Source: an uncultured Gammaproteobacteria bacterium (GTDB lineage: Bacteria; Patescibacteriota; Microgenomatia; UBA10105; UBA927). From it: a stretch of 64,000 nt of DNA. Made by a program: the position numbers and the translations under genes. Below, one piece after another: positions 18,361 through 46,320 of the stretch (the first letter of the stretch is position 1; the number at the start of each line of letters is the position of its first letter). Location: the NCBI GenBank assembly GCA_964430295.1, contig CAYSEV010000003.1, positions 6,184 to 70,183 on the forward strand, written 5' to 3'. The notes under the pieces were generated by a model. The model made no database searches. It was given only the letters and a program-made list of their open reading frames with translations, and had not been told where the DNA came from.

Positions 18361-18383
18361 GTCCTAAATTGGATATATAATTA

Positions 18384-24942: not shown

Positions 24943-25716
24943 TCATTTTTGTATGATGCCAAGTCCAGACTCTTTAGGAAACGGGAAAATAATTTTGTTA
25001 GTATGTTTTAGTTCTCTCCAGAGCTTCCATACTCCAAATTTTCCTAAATTTTTTGTCCATTTAACATGTACATCATGAAACACCATAAATCCCCCGTTTG
25101 TCAGCATCGGCCAAAATAACGAGTAATCCAGTTTTACTCCTTCGTATGAATGATTCCCGTCAACATAAATATATTGATATCTCTTCTTTGGATATGTAGT
25201 AGCGAATTCTTTTGTAGTCATTACGTATGTGCTTATATATGAAGAAAGTCCGAGTTTACTAAAATGTTTTTTTGCATCAATTTTTTTCCAAAATCCTATT
25301 CCACTCCAGTTATTTTTTTTATCATCTCTATCGAATCCGGCATCAACGAAATCAACGTGTCCACTAAAATTATCTTTGCAGGCCACAGACAGTATTGCCG
25401 GTATATACCCTGTCCTCGACCCTATGCATAGTATGGACACAGGTTTTATGTTACGGATAAGTGCGTAATGTATTAAACCGAATCCCAAAAAATACTGACT
25501 ATAGTTTATATTGTGTCCTTCATCAGCTCCGAAATGTGTATGGAGAATCCTTGAGACGTGTCGTTTAATGAGTAGTTGAGTATAAACTGAATGGCTGGGA
25601 ATATTATCAATAACGAAGTCAAAAGCACTATCTAGTATACTTCGTCCAAATCTATATAACTTCCGCATCCCAAAAAATTTATATTTAATAAGCAGATCCT
25701 GTATCATACAAGGCAT
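24943..25716 (-). CDS. class I SAM-dependent methyltransferase, TylF/MycF-like (sugar O-methyltransferase family)
   Basis: 257 aa. ILCIGSRTGYIPAILS (glycine-rich SAM loop region) ... YIYVDGNHSYEGVKLDYSLFWPMLTNGGFMVFHD, typical of the macrocin O-MT fold. Confidence 0.5.
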   Translation of the reverse strand: MPCMIQDLLIKYKFFGMRKLYRFGRSILDSAFDFVIDNIPSHSVYTQLLIKRHVSRILHTHFGADEGHNINYSQYFLGFGLIHYALIRNIKPVSILCIGSRTGYIPAILSVACKDNFSGHVDFVDAGFDRDDKKNNWSGIGFWKKIDAKKHFSKLGLSSYISTYVMTTKEFATTYPKKRYQYIYVDGNHSYEGVKLDYSLFWPMLTNGGFMVFHDVHVKWTKNLGKFGVWKLWRELKHTNKIIFPFPKESGLGIIQK

Positions 25717-25794
25717 ATAGTATCAAAATACACATTAAATAACACTATTCTTATATTGAGGGAATTTAATATGGTTTAATGGTACTATTGCATC

Positions 25795-27141
25795 ATGATT
25801 TTTTCGATCTTTTACGAACAAATATACAAAAAAATTGCAAATAGCACTTGGCATAGATACCATAATTATCTGCTTAAACGTATAGCAGACCATAGGTACT
25901 CAAAGATTGGTCTTCTTTCCAAAATAGTGATACTAATCCAACTTATATCACTTGAAAAAAATAAACATAACTTGGGAGTACTGCAGTCACAGCCATCTGG
26001 TATGAGTATTCTTTATGCGAGTGTGGGAATGTTTTTTAATCTCAATCATTTAGGATCTGTATACATGGTTAGCGATAAATCACTCGGGATTTCTTATAGA
26101 TTAGAAAAAGACGTTATTGAATGGACAAAAAAACTGTTTCATGTGAATGATGATACTGTCGAGGGGTATGTAACAAGTGGTGGAACAGAATCAAATTTAT
26201 TCATGATGTGGTCATTGAGGGAATTTTTAAAATCAACAAAAAAAAGAAAAACATGTGTCTTAGTGACTTCGTTTACGCACTATTCCATACTGAAAGCCGC
26301 AAAAATGTTAAATATCGAGATAGCATATATTCCATTGGATAAATGTACGTGGTCAATGGATGTTACATTCCTACCTAACGCGATCTTTGCAATGCAGAAA
26401 CGAGGCTTCAAAAATATACTCGTAGTAGCTACCTTAGGGTACTCTTCTATAGGAACAAGTGACTCTATAATTGCCATTAACAGTATACTAAGCGATATTA
26501 CTAAACGTAATAAAGAGATCTTATGCGCAGGATGGGTTGATGCAGCTGCACAAGGCATTCCTTTTTCTTTACATCATGATCACGCAAATTTTCTATCATT
26601 AGATAATATATATGGTATATCCGTCGATTTCCATAAAACAGGAAATGCCCCTATTCCGTCAGGAGTAATCATATATAGAAATGTTTTAAGGAAAGCGATT
26701 CAGCAACCAATAGAATATTTGAAAGAATATGATGTAACAGTAAGCGGATCACGGCCCGGATTTTCATCACTATCAATTTGGTCAAGTATTTATGGTAAAT
26801 CGCTTGTTTCTATGAAGCGCAATTCGTTAAAGGCAGAACAAATTAAGTATCAGTTTATAAAAAAATTTAAAGAATCATTTCCTAAAGCCACTATAATTCA
26901 CAGTGAGTATTCGTATACATGTGCTATTGTTGTTAACAAATATTTTAACAAATTATCTGAAGTTGTTGAACAGAAATATAATCTGAATTTTTGTACTGTA
27001 CCTCTGCAATCAGGAAGCATGCTGAATCACTACAAAATTCATATAACTCCACTAACACGGGAAACTGTCCTGCAGCAATTCTTATCTGATGTGATAAATG
27101 ATCAGAATAACCATCAAAAGGGACGTTCTTTAGAATGTTAA
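25795..27141 (+). CDS. PLP-dependent group II (fold-type I) amino-acid decarboxylase, paralog A
   Basis: 448 aa. VTSGGTESNLFMMWSLREF is the S-G-G-T-E-S-N decarboxylase motif. The PLP-lysine region is DFHKTGNAPIPSGVI. Confidence 0.65.
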   Translation: MIFSIFYEQIYKKIANSTWHRYHNYLLKRIADHRYSKIGLLSKIVILIQLISLEKNKHNLGVLQSQPSGMSILYASVGMFFNLNHLGSVYMVSDKSLGISYRLEKDVIEWTKKLFHVNDDTVEGYVTSGGTESNLFMMWSLREFLKSTKKRKTCVLVTSFTHYSILKAAKMLNIEIAYIPLDKCTWSMDVTFLPNAIFAMQKRGFKNILVVATLGYSSIGTSDSIIAINSILSDITKRNKEILCAGWVDAAAQGIPFSLHHDHANFLSLDNIYGISVDFHKTGNAPIPSGVIIYRNVLRKAIQQPIEYLKEYDVTVSGSRPGFSSLSIWSSIYGKSLVSMKRNSLKAEQIKYQFIKKFKESFPKATIIHSEYSYTCAIVVNKYFNKLSEVVEQKYNLNFCTVPLQSGSMLNHYKIHITPLTRETVLQQFLSDVINDQNNHQKGRSLEC

Positions 27142-28484
27142 TATCGATTGTTTAACAATAGTACTTCCTGCTTATGGGATCGTCCTTTATTATTATTCCA
27201 GTCCATTTCTCGTAACGTTAGAATAGTTTCAAACAAATCTTTACCCAAACTGTCCTTTAGTGACGTATCGTCTCTAAAATACGAAATAGCTTCTCCTAAT
27301 GTCCCCGGCAATGATTCACTTTTCCCTTGCTTCCTCCCCCAGCTTGATATTGTTTCGGAATGGCCGTTCATTTTGGCGTTAATTTCCATATGTTCCTCAA
27401 TACCATGTAAACCTGAAGCTATGATCGCACCTAACGCCAAATATGGATTCGAAGTCGCATCTGATGGCTTATATTCAATATTCGTAACTTGAGCATTATC
27501 TGATGCTCTCGGAATACGGATAATAGCATCCCTGTCTCCATATCCCCAGGTTATAATTGAACCGCTCCAGGAATTCGATAGAAATCTCCTATATGAATTA
27601 ATAGATGGGGATGTCAAACATAATAAGCTCCTCGCATGATGTAACAATCCTGCTATAAAAGATTTTGATATATCGGAAATTTCGCTGTTTCTACCCGTAT
27701 TTGCAGTGATATTTTTATGGTTGCGCCATATACTAAGATGAATATGTGTACCGCTACCGGCTTGTGAAGTAAACGGTTTGGGTAAGAATGATACTTCCAT
27801 TGAGTCTTGTCTTTGTACAATAGCGCGGATTGTTTCTCTAAATGTGACCTGTTGATCTGCAGCCGCTATGGCATCTTTATATTTTACCGATAATTCAAAT
27901 TGGCCGGTTCCAGACTCAGCATGGAGTGTTTCAGACATAATGCCTTGTGCTCGGAGTGCATCTGTTATTTCAGAAAAGAGATTTGCATATTTATCAAGCG
28001 GATATGTTTGTCCAAAAATTGAGTTATCCACCGGCAAAAAACCTTCAGATGTTTGCCGTAATAGGTAAAATTCGTTTTCGAAGGAAAATTTGAACGACAA
28101 TCCATATTTTGATGCTTTTCGAATCATGCGGTCTAAGAAATCTCTTGGACAGTTCTTCCATGCTGTCTCGCCTTCATATAAATAGCAAAAAACTTTCGCA
28201 TGACCCGCTGCATAGGGTACTATATTAAAAGTACTCCAATCTGGTCTTAACAAGACATCACCATGACAAAAATACGATACTGGAAACGTATATCCCGACT
28301 GTGTTTTAATCACTGGCTTTCCTGGTTTAGGAAAAGTTATACTTCTATATTCAGGATGGTGTAAATTATCTATATATACTGCTTTAGCTCCAATTACTCC
28401 GGAATGGTCACACCACATAAAACGAATATAGCGTATATTGTTTCGTTTTATTAAATCGCGGATTTTGCCTGGTATTTCCGACAT
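27138..28484 (-). CDS. glutamine synthetase family protein (glutamate--amine ligase; GS type I-like catalytic domain)
   Basis: 448 aa. N-terminal beta-grasp YIRFMWCDHSGVIGAKAV. Catalytic-domain motifs FENEFYLL, HAESGTGQFELSVKY and KPFTSQAGSGTHIHLSIW match the conserved GS KP..G.NGSG.H.H.S.W block. Confidence 0.75.
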   Translation of the reverse strand: MSEIPGKIRDLIKRNNIRYIRFMWCDHSGVIGAKAVYIDNLHHPEYRSITFPKPGKPVIKTQSGYTFPVSYFCHGDVLLRPDWSTFNIVPYAAGHAKVFCYLYEGETAWKNCPRDFLDRMIRKASKYGLSFKFSFENEFYLLRQTSEGFLPVDNSIFGQTYPLDKYANLFSEITDALRAQGIMSETLHAESGTGQFELSVKYKDAIAAADQQVTFRETIRAIVQRQDSMEVSFLPKPFTSQAGSGTHIHLSIWRNHKNITANTGRNSEISDISKSFIAGLLHHARSLLCLTSPSINSYRRFLSNSWSGSIITWGYGDRDAIIRIPRASDNAQVTNIEYKPSDATSNPYLALGAIIASGLHGIEEHMEINAKMNGHSETISSWGRKQGKSESLPGTLGEAISYFRDDTSLKDSLGKDLFETILTLREMDWNNNKGRSHKQEVLLLNNRY

Positions 28485-28608
28485 GCGCGTATGGTACTAC
28501 TGCTTTTACAGTGAGGTCAAGGAATATACCTGTATAATGCTATATCGTATACGGATTGTATCGTCTTTGATATTATATAGCTGAAATATAGGAAATACAC
28601 TCGCATAT

Positions 28609-29865
28609 ATGATTATCAACAGGTTATTCCCAAAACAAATAGTTAACAGTGTAGTAAAACTTCTTGATACAGTCGAGACTGACAACAGAAAGATGTTACA
28701 TCTTACTGCAAATGAAAACACACTATCCCCTCTTGCCATGCATTTTTATAAATCTTCACTGGGTATGCGATACGATTTTGGGAGAGGAAAAGATCGTGTG
28801 GTATCTGTAGATTTTTTTGGAAATTTTGCGGCAACAACCTATCCGGAATTACATGATATTTTTGACATTGCATACATAAATGCAAAATCAATGCTGCATG
28901 CACAGGAAGTCAATCTTCAATGTCTATCAGGTGCTCATGCAATGTTGTGCGCACTCATTGGATCAAGTGATCCTGGTGATGTGATAATGACTGTGAGAGA
29001 AGCTGATGGCGGGCATTTTTGTACTGAAAAAATTATTAAATCAATAGGTCGAAAACATGTGTTTGCAACATATGATGTAAAGAAACTGACATTTGATGTA
29101 GATAAAACAATTCAAACGTTTATAAAATCACATGCTAAGATTCTATACCTTGATACATCTGTTCTATTAAAACCGCATCCCCTAAAGGAATTAAGAGCAC
29201 GTCTCCCGAAGGACAGTATCATAATATATGATGCCAGTCATACATTAGGATTAATTATGAGCGGGTATTTTCAGTCTCCGCTTTTGGAAGGAGCGGATAT
29301 GATATCTGCTAACACTCATAAAACGTTCCCAGGTCCACATAAGGGAATATTAGCTTTTAAGACAAAAAAAATGGGTGACCATGTTAATTCGATTATTCAA
29401 AATAGTCTATATTCTACGTTTCATACTAATAATCAGTTAGCATTAGCCATTTCGATAATAGAATTGAAACTGTATGGGAAACAGTATGCAAAACAGATTG
29501 TTCATAACTCTAATGAATTAGGGCTTCAGTTGGAAAAAGCTGGATTTTCTATTAGAAAAGTTGATTCTGTTTATAGTCATAATCATCAGGTCCATATGTT
29601 TGTAGATAATGATGTTAGAAGTGTCGTAAAGCTATTGCGTGACAATGGAATTGCAGTAAGCACAAGTGATGCTTTAGGTGGAAAATCATTTATTAGGATA
29701 GGAACCCAAGAGATCACAAAAAGAGGAATGAAAGAATCAGAAATGGCTTATATAGCAAAATTAATACGAAATATTTTTGAAGGACGCACGATGTTGAATG
29801 AAGTGATTTCATTTAACAACAAATACGATAAAATTCTTTATTGCCTGCCGTTTGAAGAAAAGTAA
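28609..29865 (+). CDS. serine hydroxymethyltransferase-like PLP enzyme (SHMT/threonine-aldolase-like fold-type I)
   Basis: 418 aa. MLHLTANENTLSP is comparable to the SHMT ASEN motif. ANTHKTFPGPHKGIL is comparable to the SHMT T-T-H-K-T-L-R-G-P-R-G-G PLP-lysine block. Confidence 0.55.
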   Translation: MIINRLFPKQIVNSVVKLLDTVETDNRKMLHLTANENTLSPLAMHFYKSSLGMRYDFGRGKDRVVSVDFFGNFAATTYPELHDIFDIAYINAKSMLHAQEVNLQCLSGAHAMLCALIGSSDPGDVIMTVREADGGHFCTEKIIKSIGRKHVFATYDVKKLTFDVDKTIQTFIKSHAKILYLDTSVLLKPHPLKELRARLPKDSIIIYDASHTLGLIMSGYFQSPLLEGADMISANTHKTFPGPHKGILAFKTKKMGDHVNSIIQNSLYSTFHTNNQLALAISIIELKLYGKQYAKQIVHNSNELGLQLEKAGFSIRKVDSVYSHNHQVHMFVDNDVRSVVKLLRDNGIAVSTSDALGGKSFIRIGTQEITKRGMKESEMAYIAKLIRNIFEGRTMLNEVISFNNKYDKILYCLPFEEK

Positions 29866-31190
29866 TGAATATCCGTTATAAAGTCGTGTATACTTTTTTT
29901 TGTAACATGTGGTATAAAGAAAAATTTGTATAATATAGTCTTGATTTTTTTTGATCGCTCAAATTCAAAAACTGTATTTTTAGCGTATATCCAGTATTTA
30001 TTCTCAATCTCCTTCGAAAACCTTTTCATCTTGCCTTTATGAAGTATTACTCCACAGGTGAGGCTGTACGGAGAGCTTATTATCAATGAATTGGGATATG
30101 TTTCTTTAATAAATAGTATGAATTTCTCTTTTAACTTAAGTTGTTGGTTAATGATATTTCTAAAACCAGTTTTACCGTATCTGTGTATGACTGCCCATAT
30201 TGCCGCAGCGGATGCTCCTGGTCTTGATCCTAACAGTGTATTGTCCCGTATTGAAAATACCGGAACTTCTTTTTCAATCAGCTCCTTGAGTCGTTTTGAA
30301 CATAACACGACTCCCGCAGGATACGGAACAGCTGTAAATTTGGAAAAATCGACCGAATATGCATGGACATATTTTGAGTTTAACGGTCTATACTTGCTAT
30401 GTGAAAATGGCAATACGAATCCATCAAATGCAGCATCTATAATAATAGAGAAAAATATATCTTTGAAGTCTGCTTGAATTTTTTCAATCATAGAAGATAC
30501 AAGTTCAGTATCGTCGCTCGTTCCGGTTTCTGTGTACCCATGTGTCAACGAAATAATAAAGCCCCGCATTCCTGATTTAATTTGACTTCTTATTAATTGC
30601 TCGAGTGACGGTATATCAATGGTCCAAGATACACTGTTAAGTGGAGAATCTTTCATGCCAATAGACGTCATTGAACATGCTTTATCGATAGAGTAATGAG
30701 TAAGAGTTGTTTTTATAAGGCATATATTATCCAAAGGAATCTTTGTTTGAAGGTATGATTTAGCAATCCAAACAGAATATATATTCCCCTCCGTTCCTCC
30801 AGAAGATACATATCCTTCCAGCAATTTATGGTTTCCACCGTATAAATCTATTAATTTATGAATAACTTCATATTCTAATTGTCGAGTTCCACTTTTATCA
30901 TTTGTTGTGCTCCAGACTCCAAGATTATTAGGATTATAGCGTAGGAAGCTCCTATACACGTGTAACGCAAAAAAATTAACTTTAGGATACAGCGTTCCGA
31001 TATTATGAGTAAGATCACTTTTTCTTAAATCGATAATTGCAGAAAAAAGCCTCGCAATTACCCGCAAAAAACCTGCTGAGCGTTTAGGAAATTGTGTTTT
31101 TGTAAGAGGAGTGTAATATGATATTAGAGGGAGCATTGAATAATACCGTATTCGGTTACTCATTTTTTGCGAAAAAAGCTGAAAATTCAT
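29838..31190 (-). CDS. PLP-dependent group II amino-acid decarboxylase, paralog B
   Basis: 450 aa. VSSGGTEGNIYSVWIAKSYL. The overall architecture parallels the ORF at 25795 (e.g. TLTHYSIDKACSM vs SFTHYSILKAAKM). Confidence 0.65.
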   Translation of the reverse strand: MNFQLFSQKMSNRIRYYSMLPLISYYTPLTKTQFPKRSAGFLRVIARLFSAIIDLRKSDLTHNIGTLYPKVNFFALHVYRSFLRYNPNNLGVWSTTNDKSGTRQLEYEVIHKLIDLYGGNHKLLEGYVSSGGTEGNIYSVWIAKSYLQTKIPLDNICLIKTTLTHYSIDKACSMTSIGMKDSPLNSVSWTIDIPSLEQLIRSQIKSGMRGFIISLTHGYTETGTSDDTELVSSMIEKIQADFKDIFFSIIIDAAFDGFVLPFSHSKYRPLNSKYVHAYSVDFSKFTAVPYPAGVVLCSKRLKELIEKEVPVFSIRDNTLLGSRPGASAAAIWAVIHRYGKTGFRNIINQQLKLKEKFILFIKETYPNSLIISSPYSLTCGVILHKGKMKRFSKEIENKYWIYAKNTVFEFERSKKIKTILYKFFFIPHVTKKSIHDFITDIHYFSSNGRQ

Positions 31191-31205
31191 ATAGCAATTT
31201 TAAAA

Positions 31206-32189
31206 TTACCAACGGTAATGCACGTCATTTTTTACATAGGTATCATAGATATGTTTTATAGCTTTCATATTTGCCTCTGATAGCTTGGGTAAATCACTTG
31301 AAGCAGCATTTTCCTTTATTTGCAATGGTGTTTTCCCTCCAACGATAACTGTAGATACTGCGTCCTGCATTAAAATCCATTTAAGTGCAAACTGGGCCAT
31401 TGTATAATCTTTACCTTTAAGTGATTTAATTTTTCTGACTGCAGATAATCCTTTATAGAAATCAACACCTGCGAAAGTTTCTCCTTGATCAAATACTTCT
31501 CCGTGCCTATTAAAATTTCTATGATCATTTTTTGGGAATCTAGAAAATATAGAAAACTTTCCAGTCAAAAGGCCACTTGCAAGAGGCACTCTTACGATGA
31601 TGCCTATATTTCTTTTTTTTGCCTCTCTAAATAGAAGCTCCATAGGTCTTTGTCTAAACATATTAAAAATAATTTGTATTGTAGAAACATTTGGGTACTC
31701 TATTGCTTTAAGTGCCTCTTCGACTTTCTCGACACTCACACCATAAAAGCGAATTTTTTTCTTCTTCACCATCTCATCTAAAAATGAAAACACTTGTGGC
31801 ATGTAATATACTTCAGTTGGCGGTGTATGAAGTTGTAATATATCGATACATGAGGTATTTAAGTTCTTTCGACTCTGCTCTATATATGCGTGCATGTTGC
31901 TTTTTGTGTATGCATCTCTAGTATGTGGATCGGATTTTCTGCCTATTTTTGTAGCGACAATAATGCGTCTACCAGCATTTTGTATATATTCACCGATAAA
32001 TTTTTCACTTCTTCCGTTTCCATATATATCCGCCGTATCTATGAAATTTATACCAGTATCAGATATACTTGATAATGCTGTTCTAGCCTGCTCGTCCGAC
32101 ACAGTACCCCATCCACCCCCTATGCCCCAACTACCATATCCTATCTCAGAAACTTTATATCCGGTTTTTCCTAAAGTTCTATATTTCAT
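31206..32189 (-). CDS. aldo/keto reductase
   Basis: 327 aa. MKYRTLGKTGYKVSEIGYGSWGIGG...FIDTADIYGNGRSE is the classic AKR N-terminal signature. Confidence 0.85.
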   Translation of the reverse strand: MKYRTLGKTGYKVSEIGYGSWGIGGGWGTVSDEQARTALSSISDTGINFIDTADIYGNGRSEKFIGEYIQNAGRRIIVATKIGRKSDPHTRDAYTKSNMHAYIEQSRKNLNTSCIDILQLHTPPTEVYYMPQVFSFLDEMVKKKKIRFYGVSVEKVEEALKAIEYPNVSTIQIIFNMFRQRPMELLFREAKKRNIGIIVRVPLASGLLTGKFSIFSRFPKNDHRNFNRHGEVFDQGETFAGVDFYKGLSAVRKIKSLKGKDYTMAQFALKWILMQDAVSTVIVGGKTPLQIKENAASSDLPKLSEANMKAIKHIYDTYVKNDVHYRW

Positions 32190-32210
32190 AGATATTGTAA
32201 AATAAACACA

Positions 32211-33581
32211 TTAGTCCTCAATAATTTGAGCTGAAAAATATAGGTCACTTGAATGGTATGGTCGATTTTTGTTACACATAAAGCTGTATAACTTTCCCAA
32301 AAATGTTGCATCAAAGGCTTTTAATTCTGCCGCTAGTATATCCATTTCTGTCTTAAATGTCTTTCCGGCTGTACCATCCGTACGATCAAATATGTAAGAC
32401 ACGATATCATGTCTCTTTTTCTTTTCTATTACAGATTCACCAGACGTTTCAATATTTGTTATTATACGAAAGAGTTCACTAAAACCTCTTGCCGTATATG
32501 ATATTTTTTGAACTTCATGTATAGTCGGGAAATATTCACCCCATATCCCTTGAGATTTATCCGGATATAGAAAAATTGCAGGTTTACCTAGAGATAAAAA
32601 ATCCCCCGCTATGGTTGATAGATCTGTAACAAGAATGTCTGCTGCAATAAGTGTCTTATTCGGTCCAAGGTAGTTTGACCGTGTAGAATCATCAAAATAC
32701 GTATTTGCATATTTTTTGAGTGTTTTTATGATAGGGTCTTTTATTTGGTACTGATATATACAAATAGGATGAGGCCGAATGATTACATTAAAATTCATTT
32801 GTTTTGCATAAGAGCAAAAACGTTCTAAATTCCTAATATCATCTCGTTTTTTTCCTATCCCCCATATTTTTTGTGATTCCCAACTAGGGGCATAAACGAT
32901 CGTTCTCCTACTTGGATCTAGATTATACTCCTGTAATATTTTGTGCTTATCTAAGGTGTTTGTGTATAGCGTGTCATTTAATACTCTTCCTATGATTCGT
33001 ATTCGCTTATCGTTTGCATGTAGAGGTGTTCGCTTTATTACTTCATCTTTTAATAATGATCCAGTGACAAAAATTCTTGCATATTTAGAAAAAGATGGAA
33101 TATTATCTGCGTGAAAATACGGTGCAGGTCCAATTTCAAATAATTCACTATGAAATACCTGCACGATATTTTTTCGCATATAAGTTTCAATAATTGGCAT
33201 TGGCATATCTATCAACCAAATTGCACGATTTCCGTATATATTTTTAAGGAAGAGTACATATGGTATAAATGCACGTTGCCATTGTGAATGTGTTATATGT
33301 TCTGACGGCTTAAGAGTACAATATTCAGGTGAACAATGCCCCAAATAATGCGTTAGAAATGGCATGTTGAATAGATACTTGTTTTTAATCCATTTAGGAG
33401 AGTTATTATAACTTTGCGCATTTGTATATATCATTATCGGGAGAATTGAATTCGAATCTATTAAATGTTTATAGTAGGCGTCCATATTTCTACCACATCC
33501 TAGATCCGATTCAATCGCCATAATCATGCATGGAACTTTATTATTTCCCCGGCGAGTAAAACTGTTAAATTCTGATATCAT
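32211..33581 (-). CDS. CDP-glycerol/CDP-polyol phosphotransferase, TagB/TagF family (teichoic-acid-type polymerase/primase)
   Basis: 456 aa. IVYAPSWES compares with the TagF YAPTWR block, and VIIRPHP compares with the TagF KxHP block. The C-terminal GT-B-like half has the conserved His. Confidence 0.55.
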   Translation of the reverse strand: MISEFNSFTRRGNNKVPCMIMAIESDLGCGRNMDAYYKHLIDSNSILPIMIYTNAQSYNNSPKWIKNKYLFNMPFLTHYLGHCSPEYCTLKPSEHITHSQWQRAFIPYVLFLKNIYGNRAIWLIDMPMPIIETYMRKNIVQVFHSELFEIGPAPYFHADNIPSFSKYARIFVTGSLLKDEVIKRTPLHANDKRIRIIGRVLNDTLYTNTLDKHKILQEYNLDPSRRTIVYAPSWESQKIWGIGKKRDDIRNLERFCSYAKQMNFNVIIRPHPICIYQYQIKDPIIKTLKKYANTYFDDSTRSNYLGPNKTLIAADILVTDLSTIAGDFLSLGKPAIFLYPDKSQGIWGEYFPTIHEVQKISYTARGFSELFRIITNIETSGESVIEKKKRHDIVSYIFDRTDGTAGKTFKTEMDILAAELKAFDATFLGKLYSFMCNKNRPYHSSDLYFSAQIIED

Positions 33582-33645
33582 AGAATTAAATTATGAAGGA
33601 ATAAATATAGTGGGTAGTATACCTGAGAATAGTATCTATTAAAAT

Positions 33646-34275
33646 ATGAAGATTGCATTTATAGGGATGTCCGGGTGCGGTAAAACGTATTGGTCATCTA
33701 AAATACATAAATTAGGATATTCACTCATAGGGTGTGATGCACAGATTGGCAAAAAATTGTCAGGTGAAATGGCTGAGCTAACACGATCAAGTGGAACCGA
33801 AGACGTTTCGCGATGGATGGGACAACCTTTTGAGTCACAGTACGCTAAACATAGTCGTATGTATCTCTATTACGAAAATGAGGTAATGCAAGAAGTTATA
33901 TCTTTTGTTGAGCATTCTTCAGATGTTGCTAATATTGTTGTAGATACCACAGGTAGTCTCGTATATGTCAAAAAGTCAATTTTGCAAAAGCTAAAAAAAC
34001 AATTGACTTTTGTATACTTAAAATCTCCCCAATCACGAATAAAAACTATGATTCAACAGTATTTTGATGATCCAAAACCTATAATTTGGGGTGATTTTTA
34101 TGTAAAGAACAGTGTTGAGTCGAATATAGAATCAATAAAGCGATGTTATCCTTCTATGCTTGAGTATCGTAGCCGTATATACGAATCACTGGCAGACGTT
34201 ACATTGGATGTGGATAAATTATCAGACAATACTATTACTGCAGAAACGGTACTGAAAATGATTTCTCTCGATTGA
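33646..34275 (+). CDS. P-loop small-molecule kinase (shikimate-kinase/AAA_33-like fold)
   Basis: 209 aa. Walker A IAFIGMSGCGKTY lies right at the N-terminus, a size and layout like shikimate/gluconate kinases. The substrate is unknown. Confidence 0.5.
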   Translation: MKIAFIGMSGCGKTYWSSKIHKLGYSLIGCDAQIGKKLSGEMAELTRSSGTEDVSRWMGQPFESQYAKHSRMYLYYENEVMQEVISFVEHSSDVANIVVDTTGSLVYVKKSILQKLKKQLTFVYLKSPQSRIKTMIQQYFDDPKPIIWGDFYVKNSVESNIESIKRCYPSMLEYRSRIYESLADVTLDVDKLSDNTITAETVLKMISLD

Positions 34276-34294
34276 TATAAACATATGGAGACAT

Positions 34295-35044
34295 TTATGT
34301 CAGCCCCAAAATATGCATATTAATATCCTCTAAATCCTTGGGTGTGTCTACATCGCACCAGAAATCAGCAGTCGTATTATCACAATAGTAAACGCTATCT
34401 CCTTGGTCAATGATTTTTTGAAAAGCATACTCAGGAAATTCTTTATATTTTCGCTGTTTCATAATATCGTTTAATGACTGAATTACAACTGGACTTGCAT
34501 ATTTATCAACGTAGTCTATTCCCTGGGCTATCCCATATGCATCTGTAGCTGATATGTGTTTTCCGTATTCAATAACAGTCCCCGTCTTCTGGTTAACACT
34601 GACTGCAAAATCCTCATCGGTATTTTTCCTCCTTTGTTCAACTGCTGAAACTATACTTTTTTTGCTCTCAATAAGTCGTATCAAAATCTCCTTGTTGTAA
34701 TATAGATCTCCTGCCAGTCGAAAAAAATCTGAATTATATAATAACGGGCTCGCACAATAAAAAGAATATATACTATTTCGCTGAAGATAGTGTTTGTTAA
34801 ATACAAAAGTAAAATGTATATCAGGAAAAAACTTTTCTGTAAATTTCTTTATCTGATCTGCTTTATAACCTACGACTAATATAATATCTGATATTCCAAT
34901 TGTCCTTATATTATTTATGCTATACCACAACAACGGTTTTTCATGAACCATAAGGAGACTTTTATGGGTAATCCCGGAATAGGGCAACAACCTTCCCCCA
35001 TCACCGGCCAAGAGTATTACAGCTTTAGTCTTTGTTATATTCAT
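34295..35044 (-). CDS. alcohol/sugar-phosphate nucleotidyltransferase (LicC/IspD/TarI-like cytidylyltransferase)
   Basis: 249 aa. AVILLAGDGGRLLP is the G-x-G-x-R nucleotide-binding loop of the NTP_transferase fold. Its size matches TarI/LicC. Its start shares TAATG with the stop of the upstream methyltransferase. Confidence 0.6.
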   Translation of the reverse strand: MNITKTKAVILLAGDGGRLLPYSGITHKSLLMVHEKPLLWYSINNIRTIGISDIILVVGYKADQIKKFTEKFFPDIHFTFVFNKHYLQRNSIYSFYCASPLLYNSDFFRLAGDLYYNKEILIRLIESKKSIVSAVEQRRKNTDEDFAVSVNQKTGTVIEYGKHISATDAYGIAQGIDYVDKYASPVVIQSLNDIMKQRKYKEFPEYAFQKIIDQGDSVYYCDNTTADFWCDVDTPKDLEDINMHILGLT

Positions 35045-35961
35045 TATAATGTTTCAGGCCATCGCGACTTCAAAGTAAGGTTTATAAATCGGGAAATACG
35101 GTTTAGGTCTATCAGGTTCGATGCCGGTTTATGACATAGAATAATAGTCCTCCAGCTTCCTTTACTCCACGTTGACTCGTTATAGTTTCCATATAAATTT
35201 TGAATTTCAAAACCGACATGTTCAAGCATTTGTTTATACTGTTTAAGGGTATACTGAATCATATAGTAATGAAAATATCCTGATTTACCGTTCTTTTGCC
35301 ATTTTCTGTGGTATGAATCTAACTGAGCATCCTCGTAATATAAATCGGTATCTATAAGGTTGTATCCATCAACAGTATTCTTCTTGACGTATTTGTACAC
35401 TCCTGGGCGTACTTTTTTACCGTATTTCTTAATATACGAAACATGTTCATATGCATTAATAACATCAATCAAAAATTTTCCTCCAGGTTTGAGAGCATTA
35501 AATATTCGGTGAAGAACATCTATATTCTCTTCGTGTGCAAAATATCCAAAAGCAGAATATAAGGATAAAATAACATCATAGGTATTATGGTCAGCTAGTT
35601 CTCTCATGTCCTTTTTTATAAACGTAACTGATGAATTATTTTTTTTTGCCTCTTTTCTAGCAATTTTGAGGAAATAATCAGAATAATCCAGCCCTGTTAT
35701 TTTTAAATTTGCTTTTGATAGTTCAATTGCATGTCTTCCGTGTCCGCAACCTAAATCAAGGATATTATGTGTTGGACGTAGTGGAACTATTTTGCGTATA
35801 AACGAGGCTTCATCGCGGGAGCGGCTTTGAGATAAAACCGGATTATAAAGGTGGTAATATGTTGCTCCAAATTGTTTTTTCCACCAAGTTTTTGGAGTTT
35901 TTGATGGTAAAGAAAAAATAGAAGTCATAGTGTATATACGTTTGGTATATTTTGTATCCAA
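35044..35961 (-). CDS. class I SAM-dependent methyltransferase (Methyltransf_11/25-like)
   Basis: 305 aa. ILDLGCGHGRHAIELS is SAM motif I. It overlaps the upstream decarboxylase gene by 37 nt. Confidence 0.75.
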   Translation of the reverse strand: MDTKYTKRIYTMTSIFSLPSKTPKTWWKKQFGATYYHLYNPVLSQSRSRDEASFIRKIVPLRPTHNILDLGCGHGRHAIELSKANLKITGLDYSDYFLKIARKEAKKNNSSVTFIKKDMRELADHNTYDVILSLYSAFGYFAHEENIDVLHRIFNALKPGGKFLIDVINAYEHVSYIKKYGKKVRPGVYKYVKKNTVDGYNLIDTDLYYEDAQLDSYHRKWQKNGKSGYFHYYMIQYTLKQYKQMLEHVGFEIQNLYGNYNESTWSKGSWRTIILCHKPASNLIDLNRISRFINLTLKSRWPETL

Positions 35962-37196
35962 TTTTGAGCGATAGAATAGGTTAGAGCACCCTGATTAAGT
36001 ATTGTAACAACATCTCCGATATTCATATCTTTGGCATAACATGCATACCCCCATAAATCACGTGTTGTGCACAAATTTCCGTACATAGTATTTATAATTT
36101 CTTTGTCTGATGGTCTAGTCAGATTTATGGCCGGAAAGTATTCATACATATATCGCTGCCACCCGACCATATTTATGCCGCCATCAAGAATAGATACCGC
36201 AGTGTTTTTAATATCGACGATTGATAACACAATATGCATTGCCCTATTACAGATAATTCTGCCTGGTTCTGCATAGTAATCTGGTGTTATGAGAGGTTCT
36301 AAATACGTATGTATTGCTTTTGAGATCGCACTAGCATATTTTTTGAGTTCTATTGCTTCTCTTAGTTTAAATTCATTTGAAAATCTTCGTTTTACATCAT
36401 CATATGAACTATGTACGTTGTTGTGTGAATCTTTAGAGAATTCGTATGGGTAATATCCCTCTGATTCATACGGTTCAAATCCCCCACCGAAATCTATATA
36501 TTTTATAGTTTCTCTTTCTTGTTTAGAAAAGTGACTAAGTTGATCAGCTAATTCCTTAATACTTTCAACATATGCAACTGCATCTTTATTTCTGGATGCA
36601 TGAAAATGTATGCCCTGAATATGTATGTACGGATACTTGTAAGCCTGCTTCCAAAATACACGAAGCTGATCAATATCTATGCCGAATTTAACCCATTGCG
36701 GCAATGCTTTTACGTGTATACGTACACCAATGGTTATATGTTTTTTAAGATTGTTGGTTATTGTTCCTAATCGATCTAGTTCAAGAAAACTGTCAACGTG
36801 AATGCGTACATATTTTGTATGTTTAACCGCATATAAAAGTTCATGATTTTTTTTCCCTGGACTATAATATAGTATATTTTTACACCCTAATTTTATTGCA
36901 TCAGTAAGCTCAACGCCGCTTGCAACATCAAGACCATACCCATGTAAGAGTGCTTCTTTAACCAATGGTCGATAATTATTTATTTTATATGCATAAAACG
37001 GGTGAAAGTTAGGTATATGTGTTGAGAAAATATTAACAAAATTTTCTAAGTCCTCCTGAAGCGCCTGTTTGTCGAAGACATAAAAAGGAGTTTCATATTT
37101 TTTTGACAACATCAAGATTTTTTCACGGTTGTTTTTTGTAAAAGATTTCACAATCTTCACGAATTGTCGCTGATGTTTAATGTCGCCAGTTTTCAT
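35925..37196 (-). CDS. PLP-dependent fold-type III decarboxylase (Orn/DAP/Arg decarboxylase family)
   Basis: 423 aa. YAYKINNYRPLVKEALLHGYGLDVASGVELTDA is the N-terminal TIM-barrel PLP-Lys region. IDFGGGFEPY is the G-G-G-F/L motif. ATGA overlap with the ABC ATPase stop. Confidence 0.7.
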   Translation of the reverse strand: MKTGDIKHQRQFVKIVKSFTKNNREKILMLSKKYETPFYVFDKQALQEDLENFVNIFSTHIPNFHPFYAYKINNYRPLVKEALLHGYGLDVASGVELTDAIKLGCKNILYYSPGKKNHELLYAVKHTKYVRIHVDSFLELDRLGTITNNLKKHITIGVRIHVKALPQWVKFGIDIDQLRVFWKQAYKYPYIHIQGIHFHASRNKDAVAYVESIKELADQLSHFSKQERETIKYIDFGGGFEPYESEGYYPYEFSKDSHNNVHSSYDDVKRRFSNEFKLREAIELKKYASAISKAIHTYLEPLITPDYYAEPGRIICNRAMHIVLSIVDIKNTAVSILDGGINMVGWQRYMYEYFPAINLTRPSDKEIINTMYGNLCTTRDLWGYACYAKDMNIGDVVTILNQGALTYSIAQNWIQNIPNVYTL

Positions 37197-37948
37197 AGTG
37201 GAGACGTGTATTCAAGGTTCTTTCCTTGCATAGATTTATAGAATTGATCTACCAATTCTTTCGATCCACTGTGTTCAACCTGTCCATTTCTTAATACAAC
37301 AATTCTATTGCAGTTATTTTTTACATATGAAAGCCAGTGCGTCACCAAAAGAATGGTCGTCCCTTTTTTGTAAAGCATTTCAATCGTTTTTAACGCTTTA
37401 TTTTGGAATTTTTGATCCCCTACATACATACTTTCATCAAGAATAAGTATGTCAGGATCAGAATGAATAGTGATGGAAAAGCTTAGCTTCAATTTCATCC
37501 CATCAGAATATGTAAAAAGTGGCGCATCGATAAACTGTCCTACATCAGAATACTCTATAATAGAGTTAAGTTTTGATGTTATTTCTTTTTCTCTCATGTT
37601 AAGAAGCATCCCCATCAGATAGATATTTTGAATGCCAGTTAATTCCGGTCTAAATCCTGCTTCAAGATTGATCAACGATACTATTCTTCCGTGAGTTTCC
37701 ACAGTTCCGGATGTCGGTGTTGTCACCCCTGATATTATTTTCAATAACGTGGTTTTCCCCGATCCATTGGGACCAATAATGCCGACTCTCTCCCCCTTCA
37801 TGAACTGTAGATTTATATCCTTTAACGCCCAAAAAGATTCATTTCTTCCTTTAAGTATTTTTTCCATCAGTGTTGGTTTTTCATGATGGATTTCATATTT
37901 TTTACTAATATGTGTAAGTTTTATTGCTATAGTGTTGTTTTTTTTCAT
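37193..37948 (-). CDS. ABC transporter ATP-binding protein, polysaccharide/teichoic-acid export type (Wzt/TagH-like, short form)
   Basis: 251 aa. Walker A GIIGPNGSGKTTLL. Signature/Walker B region ILILDE. Co-operonic with an ABC-2 permease. Confidence 0.85.
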   Translation of the reverse strand: MKKNNTIAIKLTHISKKYEIHHEKPTLMEKILKGRNESFWALKDINLQFMKGERVGIIGPNGSGKTTLLKIISGVTTPTSGTVETHGRIVSLINLEAGFRPELTGIQNIYLMGMLLNMREKEITSKLNSIIEYSDVGQFIDAPLFTYSDGMKLKLSFSITIHSDPDILILDESMYVGDQKFQNKALKTIEMLYKKGTTILLVTHWLSYVKNNCNRIVVLRNGQVEHSGSKELVDQFYKSMQGKNLEYTSPL

Positions 37949-38844
37949 ATCCAGTCATCAAAGTTTTTACTTTCTTGTATAAAGATGTAAATACCAAGTG
38001 CAAACATAATGCCAATAACAATACAATTAGAGACAATCATCAGTGGTCCCGGCAACGCCGTACCTACGAATGCATGTTGAAGTAATTGAATTATTGAGGT
38101 GAGCGGATTCAGTCGCCAGAGCCATATATATTTTGATGGCATTTGTGTAAGCGGGTATACAATAGGACTGGCATAAAACCAGACGATCAATAGAGCTGAA
38201 ACAAAAAAATTAATATCCCTATAACGTGTATTGAGTGCAGATGTAAGTAAGCTTATCCCTGATGTAAATATACATAAGAGTACAATGGCAATCACGCTAT
38301 ATGGGAGTGAGTACAGTGTCATTGTTCCAATCGTTATTGTTGAAATAACAAACAACGCTAAGGCAGCAAGAAAATGTATCAAATTAGACATGATGATAGA
38401 GAGTGGTATGACTGCTCTTGGAAATGACGCTTTCTTAATAAGTGATCGTTCGTATACGATTGACGGTGTTGATTTGGATAATGAAAGTGAAAAAAAGTTC
38501 CATACAAGAAGTCCAATAAAAAGAAAATAGTTATAGTTTTTAATTGGTTCTTTGATAAATAATGGGAAAATGAATCCAATTATCAGCATTTGTAACAATG
38601 GATTTGCAACAATCCATACAAAACCGAAAACTGTATTTTTATATCTCGATTGCAATTCTGTTTCCGTTAATCTTGCAAGCAATTCAATAAATAGCTTCGT
38701 ATCTCTATTCATGGGTGTTATTATAGCCTTTATATTTGTTTTAGGTAATCCCTTTAGGAAGGTTATTTCAATACATATAGAATTTCTATGAACTATCATC
38801 CTCAAATTTCCCCTTGCATACCTCCAGAAATGCATGATATGCAT
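37945..38844 (-). CDS. ABC-2 type transporter permease (Wzm/TagG-like); real start probably Met45 (about 38712)
   Basis: Six TM helices. The N-terminal LARLTETELQSRYKNTVFGFVWIVANPLL is typical of the ABC-2 polysaccharide exporter start. The annotated start would overlap the upstream aminotransferase by 59 nt. Confidence 0.75.
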   Translation of the reverse strand: MHIMHFWRYARGNLRMIVHRNSICIEITFLKGLPKTNIKAIITPMNRDTKLFIELLARLTETELQSRYKNTVFGFVWIVANPLLQMLIIGFIFPLFIKEPIKNYNYFLFIGLLVWNFFSLSLSKSTPSIVYERSLIKKASFPRAVIPLSIIMSNLIHFLAALALFVISTITIGTMTLYSLPYSVIAIVLLCIFTSGISLLTSALNTRYRDINFFVSALLIVWFYASPIVYPLTQMPSKYIWLWRLNPLTSIIQLLQHAFVGTALPGPLMIVSNCIVIGIMFALGIYIFIQESKNFDDWI

Positions 38845-39634
38845 GCATTAATTTTTTCAACTCATCAGGTACAGAAACAAATTTGAAATTATTTATTTGA
38901 GCGATAGGAATAATATTAGAACTTGTGCTTGTTAAAAATGCGCCATCATAGTCAGAAATCTTGTCGAGAGGGATTGTTTGTTCTGACGTTTCAAAACCAT
39001 GCTTTTTTGCTATAAACAATACTGTTTGCCTTGTAACTCCCTCGAGCACATATTTTGCCGGTGGCGTCAATATTTTATTATTTTTTAATGCAAAAAAATT
39101 TGTCCTCGATCCCTCCAGAATACTATCATTTGAATCTGTAAAAAGCACGTCATAATCTCCCCTCTTTCTAGCTGCTGTAAAGTACAAATAGCTTTGAAGC
39201 ATATTCAGAGACTTTGCATTAGGGAGAAATCGTGTATATCTGACTGTATTTACGGATGCTCCATTGGTATACAATTTCCTATCCGGAAACAATGGCGCTA
39301 ACGGCAAAATATATATATTTGCGCTGTTATGCTTAACGTCTCCTATAAGTAAAATTTTAATATTAAAACTGGGCTGACAAGAGATTGTCTTTTCAATAAG
39401 AGAGCGTAGGAATGCTGAGATATCTTCCTGAGTGAACGTATGCGTTAATCCGAGAATTTCAGTTGATTTGAATAATCTTTGTATATGTTGTTCTTCAAAA
39501 TATATAATACCGTTACGCACTTTTAGTGTCTCGTATACTCCAAATCCATATTGATATTCAATACTATCGATTGGAATAGTAGCATTCGCTATAGGTTCTA
39601 GCTGTCCATTTTTTGAAAAATATGGAAATATCAT
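38786..39634 (-). CDS. class IV (fold-type IV) PLP aminotransferase (D-amino-acid/branched-chain aminotransferase or ADC-lyase-like)
   Basis: 282 aa. YQYGFGVYETLKVRNGIIYFEEQHIQRL is the class IV N-terminal E..K.. region with the catalytic Lys. The length fits the DAAT/ADCL subgroup. Confidence 0.7.
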   Translation of the reverse strand: MIFPYFSKNGQLEPIANATIPIDSIEYQYGFGVYETLKVRNGIIYFEEQHIQRLFKSTEILGLTHTFTQEDISAFLRSLIEKTISCQPSFNIKILLIGDVKHNSANIYILPLAPLFPDRKLYTNGASVNTVRYTRFLPNAKSLNMLQSYLYFTAARKRGDYDVLFTDSNDSILEGSRTNFFALKNNKILTPPAKYVLEGVTRQTVLFIAKKHGFETSEQTIPLDKISDYDGAFLTSTSSNIIPIAQINNFKFVSVPDELKKLMHAYHAFLEVCKGKFEDDSS

Positions 39635-43304: not shown

Positions 43305-43353
43305 CGTCTCTCCTCTACTTGTAATTTCTTGTTTTTTCTACTACGCTTGAGGT

Positions 43354-45957: not shown

Positions 45958-46320
45958 ATGCTTCCCCATAAATATCGGCTTCCCCCATACTCTATTCGTG
46001 ATGTTATGCGCCGCGGTCGACGTATAGTCCGAAATGGAATAACTATGCTTTTTTTGCACCGAACAACTCACCTACCTCAAGAGCAAATTTTGCAGTTTCG
46101 AGTTGCTGTTATTACCTCTGCCAACATTGATACGCGAGCGGTTATCCGAAACAGAATGCGACGGGTTATGCATGAATCTATCGCACATATACTGCCGAAC
46201 ATATCCAATACGACTGATTGTGTTGTCATCGGATCAAAGAGTCTCATAGGGTTATCTCAATCTGAGGTTGAAATTCGGCTGGATGATATTTTTAGGTATG
46301 CCGGACTCACACACAAATAA
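45958..46320 (+). CDS. rnpA: ribonuclease P protein component
   Basis: 120 aa, basic. Sits immediately after rpmH in the conserved rpmH-rnpA order. Confidence 0.85.

Follow-up and report, generated by a model that had tools for sequence, protein, structure and literature searches.

We analysed a window of DNA of 64,000 nucleotides (contig CAYSEV010000003.1, positions 6,184 to 70,183) and focused on an interval of about 15 kb within it (window positions 24943-39634), where amine-forming and amine-modifying enzymes are interleaved with genes for the synthesis and export of a glycan. An earlier note had listed here three decarboxylases, a glutamine synthetase (GS)-family ligase, a serine hydroxymethyltransferase (SHMT)-like enzyme, a class-IV aminotransferase and two methyltransferases, and had proposed that they may supply an amino-alcohol or gamma-glutamyl-amine substituent of the polymer. 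Open reading frames (ORFs) of at least 150 residues were scanned with the Pfam and NCBIfam libraries. Every gene named begins exactly where it had been placed and carries the domain ascribed to it (Pfam); the gene set is thus confirmed as an observation. The interval, extended to the next gene on the right, contains the following features, in which PLP denotes pyridoxal 5'-phosphate, SAM S-adenosylmethionine, CDP cytidine diphosphate and DAP diaminopimelate.

24943-25716, minus strand: methyltransferase MT24, Methyltransf_24 (PF13578), Pfam 58 bits against a cut-off of 26
25795-27141, plus strand: deC_A, group-II PLP decarboxylase (Pfam Pyridoxal_deC)
27138-28484, minus strand: GS-family ligase (Gln-synt_C, 298 bits)
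28609-29865, plus strand: SHMT-fold PLP enzyme (Pfam SHMT)
29838-31190, minus strand: deC_B, group-II PLP decarboxylase (Pfam Pyridoxal_deC)
31206-32189, minus strand: aldo-keto reductase (Pfam Aldo_ket_red, 217 bits)
32211-33581, minus strand: TagF-like CDP-alcohol phosphotransferase (Glyphos_transf, PF04464, 61.8 bits against a cut-off of 22.1)
33646-34275, plus strand: kin209, P-loop kinase of 209 residues with a predicted shikimate-kinase fold (from the fold and the context of its family)
34295-35044, minus strand: LicC-like nucleotidyl (cytidylyl) transferase (Pfam NTP_transferase, NTP_transf_3, DUF6564)
35044-35961, minus strand: class-I SAM methyltransferase (Pfam)
35925-37196, minus strand: fold-III (Orn/DAP/Arg-type) PLP decarboxylase (Pfam Orn_Arg_deC_N plus the C-terminal domain)
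37193-37948, minus strand: TagH-like ABC exporter ATPase (Pfam ABC_tran)
37945-38844, minus strand: ABC-2 (TagG/Wzm-like) exporter permease (Pfam ABC2_membrane, 75 bits)
38786-39634, minus strand: class-IV (fold-type IV) aminotransferase (Pfam Aminotran_4, 150 bits)
39670-40335, plus strand: polyprenyl-phosphate sugar-phosphate transferase, which initiates a lipid-linked glycan (Bac_transf, Pfam 174 bits)

Two descriptions had to be refined. The methyltransferase MT24 had been called TylF-like; it shares a clan with TylF, but its family is Methyltransf_24. The genes for polymer synthesis and export are present as noted, but the reductase, the TagF-like enzyme, the kinase and the LicC-like enzyme had been overlooked as parts of the pathway. 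The Rfam and tRNA scans gave no match and hence no riboswitch clue, and the promoter and terminator scans, which returned fewer sites than shuffled sequence, were uninformative.

The amine enzymes belong to the glycan locus, as had been supposed. Five genes, running from the ABC permease through the ABC ATPase, the fold-III decarboxylase and the class-I methyltransferase to the nucleotidyltransferase, are linked in that each stop codon overlaps the next start codon (ATGA at three junctions, TAATG at the last); the likely true start of the methyltransferase is the ATG at 35928, which overlaps the stop of the upstream decarboxylase. The amine enzymes in this chain are therefore read together with the exporter, which argues against a pathway for a free metabolite.

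The grouping is rare but conserved and is more than chance: the block is syntenic in a second contig and its core recurs in six other loci. In the 58-kb contig L001, 17 genes of the window are kept in order and orientation, with all ORFs intact and 38-88% protein identity, and the synteny spans the ABC exporter to the genes for Wzy_C, DUF4330 and a 1000-residue beta-propeller. The trio of GS-like, SHMT-like and group-II decarboxylase genes, whose recurrence elsewhere had been proposed as a check, is found again in this contig. With the SHMT-like protein as the query, we recovered the P0123 locus, L005 (the same as L008), L006 (the same as L009), L007, L041 and L091; together with the window and L001, these make up the eight related loci considered below. 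L005, L006 and L007 are in the metagenome-assembled genome (MAG) records CAZKLT01, CAWBPL01 and CAZNKB01, respectively, and L006 is from a Candidatus Gottesmanbacteria MAG. A metagenome scan added L091 as the sole close locus, and close orthologs are confined to glycan loci of this type. A contiguous block of the class-I methyltransferase, nucleotidyltransferase, TagF-like, reductase, deC_B and SHMT-like genes recurs in L001, L007, L091 and the P0123 locus. The block of L005 is the same except that a HisC/CobD-like PLP enzyme (class I/II) takes the position of deC_B; this enzyme, from a family that acts on phosphorylated amino alcohols or amino acids, stands in there for deC_B, the kinase and the fold-III ortholog. 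L006 and L041 retain the SHMT-like enzyme, deC_B, MT24 and the exporter.

Between MT24 and the SHMT-like gene lies a slot of variable content. It is occupied by deC_A and the GS-like ligase in the window and L001, and by a second, divergent fold-III decarboxylase and a second MT24 in L007, L005 and the P0123 locus. Either cassette couples an enzyme that forms an amine to one that modifies it, which suggests strain-specific tailoring. MT24 itself occurs in every related locus, often in two copies, with orthologs of 47-69% identity in L001, L005, L006, L007, L041 and L091; it has no NCBIfam match, and its candidate substrates are a sugar, to which it would add an O-methyl cap, or an amine.

Taken as a whole, the broader SHMT-like family (33-50% identity) does not define the pathway, because clustering of the neighbourhoods of 76 loci revealed no neighbour common to more than eight of them. 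The SHMT-like family resides overwhelmingly in Patescibacteria genomes. This distribution, the Gottesmanbacteria locus and, in the window, a short YidC, low GC content and many ORFs without a family match together suggest that the host is probably an ultra-small bacterium of the Patescibacteria (candidate phyla radiation, CPR). A second recurrent neighbourhood of the broader family, exemplified by L012 6306-14900 (Paenibacillus sp. 22594) and by clusters 1, 4, 5 and 6 of that clustering, contains an ABC-2 exporter, a family 2 glycosyltransferase (GT2), the SHMT-like enzyme, Aminotran_1_2, a HAD hydrolase, a protein combining GT2 and TPR domains and a GTP-cyclohydrolase-II-like gene, to which a thiamine diphosphate enzyme is added in some CPR loci. 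Two metagenome contigs carry tandem SHMT-like paralogs, which are 33-35% and 40-41% identical to the window protein (L095 3010-5513 and L096 2983-5483).

The genes for activation and transfer point to a CDP-alcohol. The best PDB match of the nucleotidyltransferase is LicC (1JYK, CTP:phosphocholine cytidylyltransferase; E 5e-15, residues 4-223 of 249), and the next match, at 36 bits, covers the N-terminal nucleotide loop only. A profile of five orthologs of the class-I methyltransferase matched an uncharacterised PDB entry best (9ri2, 122 bits); the best characterised matches were the plant phospho(methyl)ethanolamine N-methyltransferases (PMTs) 5WP5 and 5WP4 (55 and 53 bits), and many of the other named PDB matches were likewise N-methyltransferases. 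Full-length similarity to a PMT, including the substrate-binding lid, was not found, and we predict from these matches an N-methyltransferase of a phospho-amino-alcohol. The TagF-like protein belongs to the Glyphos_transf CDP-alcohol phosphotransferases, as found in wall teichoic acid systems, and its orthologs (46-58%) are in L001, L005, L007 and L091. The orthologs of the aldo-keto reductase (63-70%) are in the same four loci, and its gene is found strictly together with those of the TagF-like enzyme, the cytidylyltransferase and the methyltransferase; its best NCBIfam match is the methylglyoxal reductase YdjG (110 bits against a cut-off of 550). For export, the ATPase is closest in NCBIfam to the teichoic-acid export ATPases, under the cut-off (194 against 538 and 185 against 320), and is 74-88% identical in L001, L005 and L007, while the permease exceeds the Pfam cut-off. 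The Bac_transf primer enzyme has orthologs of 55-66% in L005, L006 and L007.

For the SHMT-fold enzyme, we predict the formation of a beta-hydroxy-alpha-amino acid by an aldolase or transaldolase reaction. Its best NCBIfam match is the fluorothreonine transaldolase model TIGR04506 (259.5 bits, cut-off 650), followed by the SHMT model NF000586 (184 bits, cut-off 335), and in the PDB it matches ObiH (7K34, 152 bits) and the M. jannaschii SHMT (144 bits), with all the rest at 71 bits or lower. The AlphaFold2 model (pLDDT 93) lies equally close to ObiH and the archaeal SHMT, with Foldseek TM values of 0.86-0.87 for both, and the fold search therefore does not settle the choice between aldolase and SHMT. 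In ObiH, the catalytic H131, D204 and K234 act along with Y55 and R366, and loop 1 is the region that tells transaldolase clusters apart (PMC10495429). The window enzyme has Y55, H136, D208, K238 and R363, which are invariant in alignment A1 and also common to SHMTs. Loop 1, which binds folate in SHMT, has a family-specific sequence (residues 54-80, RYDFGRGKDRVV...) without the canonical motif YAEGYPGxRYYGG, and the HMMER alignment to the M. jannaschii SHMT begins only at residue 92. By both its score and this loop, the enzyme does not qualify as a GlyA. Its best matches in sequence and structure are among archaeal SHMT and the L-threonine transaldolases (ObiH, fluorothreonine transaldolase and LipK), with which it has in common the fold and the catalytic Tyr, His, Asp, Lys and Arg, whereas its identity to them is only 25-28%, its loop 1 is its own, its family is largely confined to CPR bacteria and its context is not that of a natural-product cluster.

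The two group-II decarboxylases are paralogs with 32% identity. deC_A has the canonical PLP-lysine motif DFHK, and its best PDB matches are a histidine decarboxylase (7ERV) and a plant serine decarboxylase (8JG7). Its only ortholog is in L001 (52%), and at E<=1e-30 it has 89 relatives among 1.84 billion representatives, the best of which is 44% identical. deC_B carries the signature VDFSKF, in which Ser replaces the usual His before the PLP lysine, and the same motif is present in all of its orthologs (46-62%; L001, L006, L007, L041 and L091). Its PDB matches are again histidine and serine decarboxylases, and its NCBIfam matches, MfnA (145 bits) and histidine decarboxylase (140 bits), are both under the cut-off. 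The PLP motif S-x-H-K is expected of plant-type serine and histidine decarboxylases; against the NCBIfam histidine decarboxylase model, the pair scored 134-140 bits (cut-off 305).

The fold-III decarboxylase is not a LysA by score (TIGR01048, 136 bits against a cut-off of 298). It keeps the catalytic K71, HFH, GGGFE, EPGR and CTTRD and has a conserved basic insertion of 35 residues. The best PDB match, 6KNH, is listed as a 'probable DAP decarboxylase', and BtrK is matched too; among its best solved relatives are enzymes for conjugated amino acids, such as BtrK and presumably SbnH. Its orthologs (61-63%) are in L001 and L007 only, and they co-occur with kin209 exactly: in the window, L001 and L007. 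The class-IV aminotransferase is accessory, occurring in the window and L006 (53%), and by score it is neither a D-amino-acid transaminase (TIGR01121, 115 bits against 277) nor an IlvE (TIGR01122, 112 against 246).

The kinase kin209 has 28 homologs among 5.8 billion proteins and no sequence match in the PDB. Its AlphaFold2 model (pLDDT 92.8) has shikimate kinases as the top 21 Foldseek matches in the PDB. Homologs with 41-46% identity adjoin threonine synthase (L087 10001-10627, L089 6001-6471 and L090 1563-2195), and the loci of its relatives include one with aspartate kinase and homoserine dehydrogenase and another with aspartate-semialdehyde dehydrogenase. Because its relatives adjoin threonine synthase, kin209 would be of a homoserine kinase type, and the context of the relatives combined with the predicted fold suggests that it is a recruited member of a homoserine-kinase family. 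A shikimate-kinase-like homoserine kinase, DvMF_0971, has been proven experimentally in Desulfovibrio (Desulfovibrio vulgaris; PMC5764234), and both the P-loop shikimate-kinase fold and family members in threonine operons were found here as well. Unlike that enzyme, kin209 is in a glycan operon instead of a threonine operon, and its match to the NCBIfam model of the Desulfovibrio type (NF040667) is weak and partial, at 32.5 bits against 197, below what the model demands. Its orthologs in glycan loci are in L001 and L007 only. The family, whose proteins have about 210 residues and of which 28 members were found, probably represents a type of homoserine kinase in CPR-like genomes that has so far gone unannotated.

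For the GS-family enzyme, we predict the function of a glutamate--amine (gamma-glutamyl-amine) ligase. The residues for metal, ATP and glutamate are conserved in it, and the equivalents of D50', Y179 and E327 are T, F and W/S (alignment A5, in which the conserved motifs of the GlnA reference sequence lined up as expected). The catalytic residues are thus retained and the acidic residues of the ammonium site lost, the same pattern as in the gamma-glutamyl-amine ligases PauA7 and GlnA4 (PMC6529630). With all three ammonium-site residues lost and 256 bits to TIGR00653 (cut-off 429), it is not a GlnA; the best NCBIfam match, gamma-glutamylputrescine synthetase, is at 328 against 650, which does not reach the PuuA equivalog. 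The known gamma-glutamyl-amine ligases (PuuA, PauA7, GlnA2/3/4 and GmaS) share its GS fold, its conserved metal, ATP and glutamate sites and the loss of D50, Y179 and E327, and its Trp adjoining the E327-equivalent position has a counterpart in PauA7. These enzymes are catabolic or detoxifying, whereas the window enzyme is in a biosynthetic glycan locus beside a decarboxylase and reaches half the cut-off of the nearest model. Its gene is convergent with that of deC_A, and their ends overlap. Among 5.8 billion proteins it has one close relative (50%, L001), which is the sole ortholog in a glycan context, and a single-sequence scan of species-representative genomes returned no relatives of the protein. 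The nearest non-glycan relatives (41-43%; L002-L004 and L110) each have an Amidohydro_2 gene directly after them, an arrangement resembling a split FluG, and two of the three contexts also include an adjacent Liv-type ABC importer. None of these is a glycan locus, and they were rejected as instances of the same system.

Taken together, we read the region as a module for tailoring and assembling a teichoic-acid-like glycan of the envelope, with export through the ABC transporter. Starting from amino acids, the core genes would synthesise de novo the CDP-activated phosphate of an amino alcohol, probably N-methylated, and the TagF-like enzyme would transfer it to a lipid-linked polymer. We assign this reading a probability of about 0.45. 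It builds on what was observed of gene families, synteny, co-occurrence, residue patterns and the surroundings of the kinase family, and from these it proposes the steps, the alcohol and the acceptor. In the order that we infer, the SHMT-fold enzyme would first provide a hydroxy-amino acid, either serine or a beta-hydroxy amino acid from glycine or threonine and an aldehyde, and the aldo-keto reductase would handle the aldehyde or alcohol partner or clear acetaldehyde. Most loci would then use deC_B, and L005 its HisC/CobD-like enzyme, as the PLP decarboxylase that removes the carboxylate to give an amino alcohol. In three loci, the recruited homoserine-kinase-type enzyme and the fold-III decarboxylase may give a phospho-amino-alcohol directly, for example 3-aminopropyl phosphate from O-phosphohomoserine or aminopropanediol phosphate from 4-phosphohydroxythreonine. 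The product would be methylated by the class-I methyltransferase, presumably on nitrogen rather than oxygen, and converted to the CDP-alcohol by the LicC-like enzyme; the TagF-like enzyme would move the phospho-alcohol onto its putative acceptor, and the TagGH-like proteins would export the polymer. The candidate alcohols are (methylated) ethanolamine or choline, 3-aminopropanol from O-phosphohomoserine and aminopropanediol from 4-hydroxythreonine, among which we make no choice; aminopropanediol would be the amino analogue of glycerol phosphate. The cassette of deC_A and the GS-family ligase would probably contribute a second amine and the gamma-glutamylation of an amine, varying with the strain.

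The closest known logic is the CDP-alcohol decoration of the Lic or teichoic type, combined with a plant-like de novo supply of the amino alcohol. The earlier note had excluded the logic of Lic phosphocholine (LicA/B/C/D of Streptococcus pneumoniae and Haemophilus influenzae), an exclusion that is not supported in a locus with a LicC-like cytidylyltransferase, a PMT-related methyltransferase and decarboxylases resembling histidine and serine decarboxylases. As in the Lic system, a cationic phospho-alcohol would be placed onto a glycan via CDP by means of a LicC-like cytidylyltransferase. In contrast to it, the alcohol here would be made de novo from amino acids instead of being imported, the transferase is TagF-like and the alcohol may not be choline; no LicA (APH/choline-kinase), LicB or LicD domain was found by Pfam and NCBIfam in the ORFs of at least 150 residues. 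The phosphocholine route of plants and Plasmodium, through serine decarboxylase, PMT and a cytidylyltransferase, has the same order of chemistry, from amino acid to amino alcohol, phospho-amino-alcohol, N-methylation and CDP-alcohol, and the similarity extends to the decarboxylases, nearest to histidine and serine decarboxylases, and the methyltransferase, nearest to PMTs among characterised enzymes. That route differs in serving phospholipid instead of glycan and in its choline/ethanolamine kinase, in place of which a homoserine-kinase relative with a predicted shikimate-kinase fold is found here, along with a LicC-like cytidylyltransferase and the extra SHMT-fold, reductase and fold-III enzymes. 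With wall teichoic acid systems (TagF/TarL, TagGH, TarIJ and TagO/TagA), the locus shares Glyphos_transf, a TagGH-like exporter, a polyprenyl-phosphate primer and the logic of a reductase with a cytidylyltransferase. It differs in the five PLP enzymes, the GS-like ligase and the two or three methyltransferases embedded in it, and in its probable CPR host. A TagD/TarI-type cytidylyltransferase was absent from the Pfam, NCBIfam and PDB matches listed, where the sole nucleotidyltransferase is the NTP_transferase/LicC-like protein.

PLP enzymes that make phospho-amino-alcohols in a capsule locus have been described in Campylobacter jejuni HS:2, where Cj1436 (serine-phosphate decarboxylase) and Cj1437 (dihydroxyacetone phosphate transaminase) make ethanolamine phosphate and serinol phosphate, with Cj1438 as the amide ligase and Cj1435 as the phosphatase (PMC11800397). 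The HisC/CobD-like enzyme of L005 is of the same superfamily. In C. jejuni, an ATP-grasp enzyme forms an amide bond to glucuronate, followed by dephosphorylation, whereas CDP activation and a TagF-like transferase are proposed here; neither an ATP-grasp enzyme nor a phosphatase was found among the ORFs scanned. In its proposed logic, with phosphorylation of a hydroxy-amino acid before a PLP enzyme decarboxylates it, the kinase and fold-III pair resembles the PduX/CobD cobalamin route to (R)-1-amino-2-propanol O-2-phosphate. The cobalamin route uses a GHMP kinase and a fold-I decarboxylase instead of a shikimate-kinase fold and fold III, and its end use is different. Two other decorations were considered and rejected. 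Methyl phosphoramidate (MeOPN) of C. jejuni likewise involves a cytidylyltransferase, a P-loop kinase and methyltransferases, and was dismissed because neither a glutamine kinase nor an amidotransferase of the Cj1417 type is present and because the GS-like gene is an accessory one. A phosphonate (CMP-2-aminoethylphosphonate) was dismissed because no ORF scanned has the PEP-mutase domain that would be expected near the LicC/PntC-like enzyme. An amino-alcohol decoration route of this kind in a glycan locus seems not to have been described before.

A serious rival, although we consider it unlikely, is a polyol-phosphate teichoic acid to which amines are attached separately, for example as uronic acid amides. 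A sugar or triose phosphate would be turned into a polyol phosphate by the reductase, converted into the CDP-polyol by the LicC-like enzyme and polymerised by the TagF-like enzyme. A reductase, a cytidylyltransferase and a TagF-like enzyme together follow the logic of TarJ, TarI and TarL, and the strict co-occurrence of the reductase with the other two genes fits this logic, as do the TuaH-like teichuronic-acid glycosyltransferase and the AsnB-like and WbuX-type amidotransferases in the locus. The SHMT-like and deC_B genes are also retained without CDP genes in L006 and L041, and phospho-amino-alcohols amide-linked to a capsule have a precedent in the ethanolamine and serinol glucuronamides of C. 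jejuni HS:2 (PMC11800397). However, the class-I methyltransferase, translationally coupled to the cytidylyltransferase, would be left without a role, the cytidylyltransferase is LicC-like with no TagD/TarI/IspD-type match among the NCBIfam and PDB matches listed, and no ATP-grasp amide ligase is present among the ORFs scanned. GS-family ligases, for their part, activate glutamate, not uronic acids. Quite unlikely in our estimate is the possibility, raised in the earlier note, that a gamma-glutamyl-amine is the key product, in which case the GS-like ligase would glutamylate a decarboxylase amine and the conjugate would be placed on the polymer. The residue pattern of the ligase fits this idea, and its gene is flanked by deC_A in a pair kept in L001. 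Nevertheless, both genes are missing from six of the eight related loci, which makes gamma-glutamylation an optional decoration, accessory at most, and not the heart of the system; the contexts of the nearest GS-like relatives, with Amidohydro_2 and Liv-type importers, point to catabolism and not to glycan synthesis.

Soluble methylated or gamma-glutamyl amines could also be made by the decarboxylases, the methyltransferase and the GS-like ligase, and the broader SHMT-like family occurs outside glycan loci, but a free small-molecule pathway (polyamine-like or osmolyte) merely situated inside the island is very improbable. Codon overlaps tie the fold-III decarboxylase and the methyltransferase to the exporter ATPase and the cytidylyltransferase, the close orthologs keep to glycan loci of this type, and no spermidine synthase, agmatinase or other polyamine enzyme was found in the ORFs scanned; the free-polyamine alternative of the earlier note thus gained no support. 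We reject, on the curated NCBIfam cut-offs, the reading that these are ordinary housekeeping enzymes (GlnA, GlyA, LysA and IlvE/Dat) of a reduced genome, placed in the locus by chance, and its probability is close to nil. Reduced genomes often hold a single divergent copy of each enzyme, and 64 kb of this genome was in view; even so, all the scores, including those to the GlnA, SHMT, LysA and D-amino-acid transaminase/IlvE models that had been proposed as a check, are far under the cut-offs, the ammonium site of the GS-like enzyme is gone, the SHMT-like enzyme has no canonical folate-loop motif and the block is conserved with glycan genes across distant genomes.

Several observations weigh against the preferred reading, a CDP-activated amino-alcohol phosphate made de novo and transferred by the TagF-like enzyme. 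None of the enzymes has an equivalog-level assignment, and their substrates are therefore guesses. The matches of the class-I methyltransferase to 5WP5, 5WP4 and 4KRH cover the SAM-binding region only (profile positions ~40-158 of 294). The SHMT-like enzyme keeps an Asn at what we take to be the pterin-binding Asn position of SHMT, so that it may still carry out folate-dependent serine synthesis. L091, the P0123 locus and L005 hold the CDP-transfer genes without a dedicated kinase that could supply the phosphate. L006 and L041 have the SHMT-like enzyme, deC_B and MT24 without a TagF-like, LicC-like or class-I methyltransferase gene within 10 kb, and the SHMT/decarboxylase pair may thus serve another substituent. 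Moreover, the window has three decarboxylases for one obvious outlet, the role of the reductase is speculative and TagF-family enzymes are known for glycerol or ribitol phosphate and are not known to use amino alcohols. Overall, the earlier interpretation is partly supported, and its amino-alcohol substituent attached to the polymer comes close to our best reading.

A bolder version of the amino-alcohol reading combines several steps and is, as a whole, possible but doubtful. Here the SHMT-fold aldolase or transaldolase would form a C-C bond before decarboxylation, a net aminomethylation of an aldehyde, and/or the shikimate-kinase-fold homoserine kinase would act before a fold-III phospho-amino-acid decarboxylase. 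The product, a cationic amino-polyol or aminopropyl phosphate, would be N-methylated, CDP-activated and transferred or polymerised by the TagF-like enzyme, resulting in a zwitterionic teichoic-acid-like polymer with built-in amines in CPR bacteria. Exchange of the two-gene cassettes, one of which has a biosynthetic gamma-glutamyl-amine ligase, would diversify this polymer between strains.

The surroundings of the module have features of their own. dnaN (1096-2199, minus strand) and dnaA (2413-3780, minus strand) are at the left of the window, with clusters of DnaA-box-like sites at 2256-2475 and 3840-3858, and rnpA (45958-46320), the short yidC (46697-47536) and jag/khpB (47541-47996) are at the right. 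These origin-region genes, usually adjacent, are split here by a 42-kb glycan locus, the GC content of which is 0.32-0.36 against 0.40-0.45 in the flanks. A 667-residue protein at 16357-18360 (minus strand) fuses an N-terminal class-II glutamine amidotransferase to a WbuX-type N-acetyl-sugar amidotransferase, which suggests an acetamidino sugar in the same locus. The beta-propeller (PQQ_2) and DUF5060 protein of about 1000 residues (window 18384-21380, minus strand) recurs at L006 1-349 and L007 828-2615 and is fused to a WecG/TagA-type glycosyltransferase domain in the Gottesmanbacteria locus. Three Wzy_C proteins, a MOP-family flippase and the ABC exporter (3900-5909, 22290-23828, 48061-49431, 49514-50815 and 37193-38844) suggest two polymers or two export routes. 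After the primer transferase, 40524-45710 holds three genes without an above-threshold family match (926, 213 and 572 residues); the 572-residue product matches DUF7305 weakly. L005 has a trio in a similar arrangement behind its own primer transferase (17507-21260), of which the third gene alone is detectably similar (44% identity). A protein with a NAGPA phosphodiester-glycosidase domain, encoded 20 kb downstream (59666-60856, plus strand), could act on phosphodiester-linked glycan substituents.

Very little is known of the surface chemistry of CPR/Patescibacteria, whose cells live attached to other microbes and whose envelope polymers are the likely contact surface. If the proposed de novo route to a choline-like or amino-polyol phosphate is correct, these reduced genomes would invest about 15 kb in tuning the charge of a glycan. 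It would also give a biosynthetic role to GS-family amine ligases, and to threonine-transaldolase-like enzymes outside natural-product clusters, and would extend the TagF-type and LicC-type enzymes to new alcohols.

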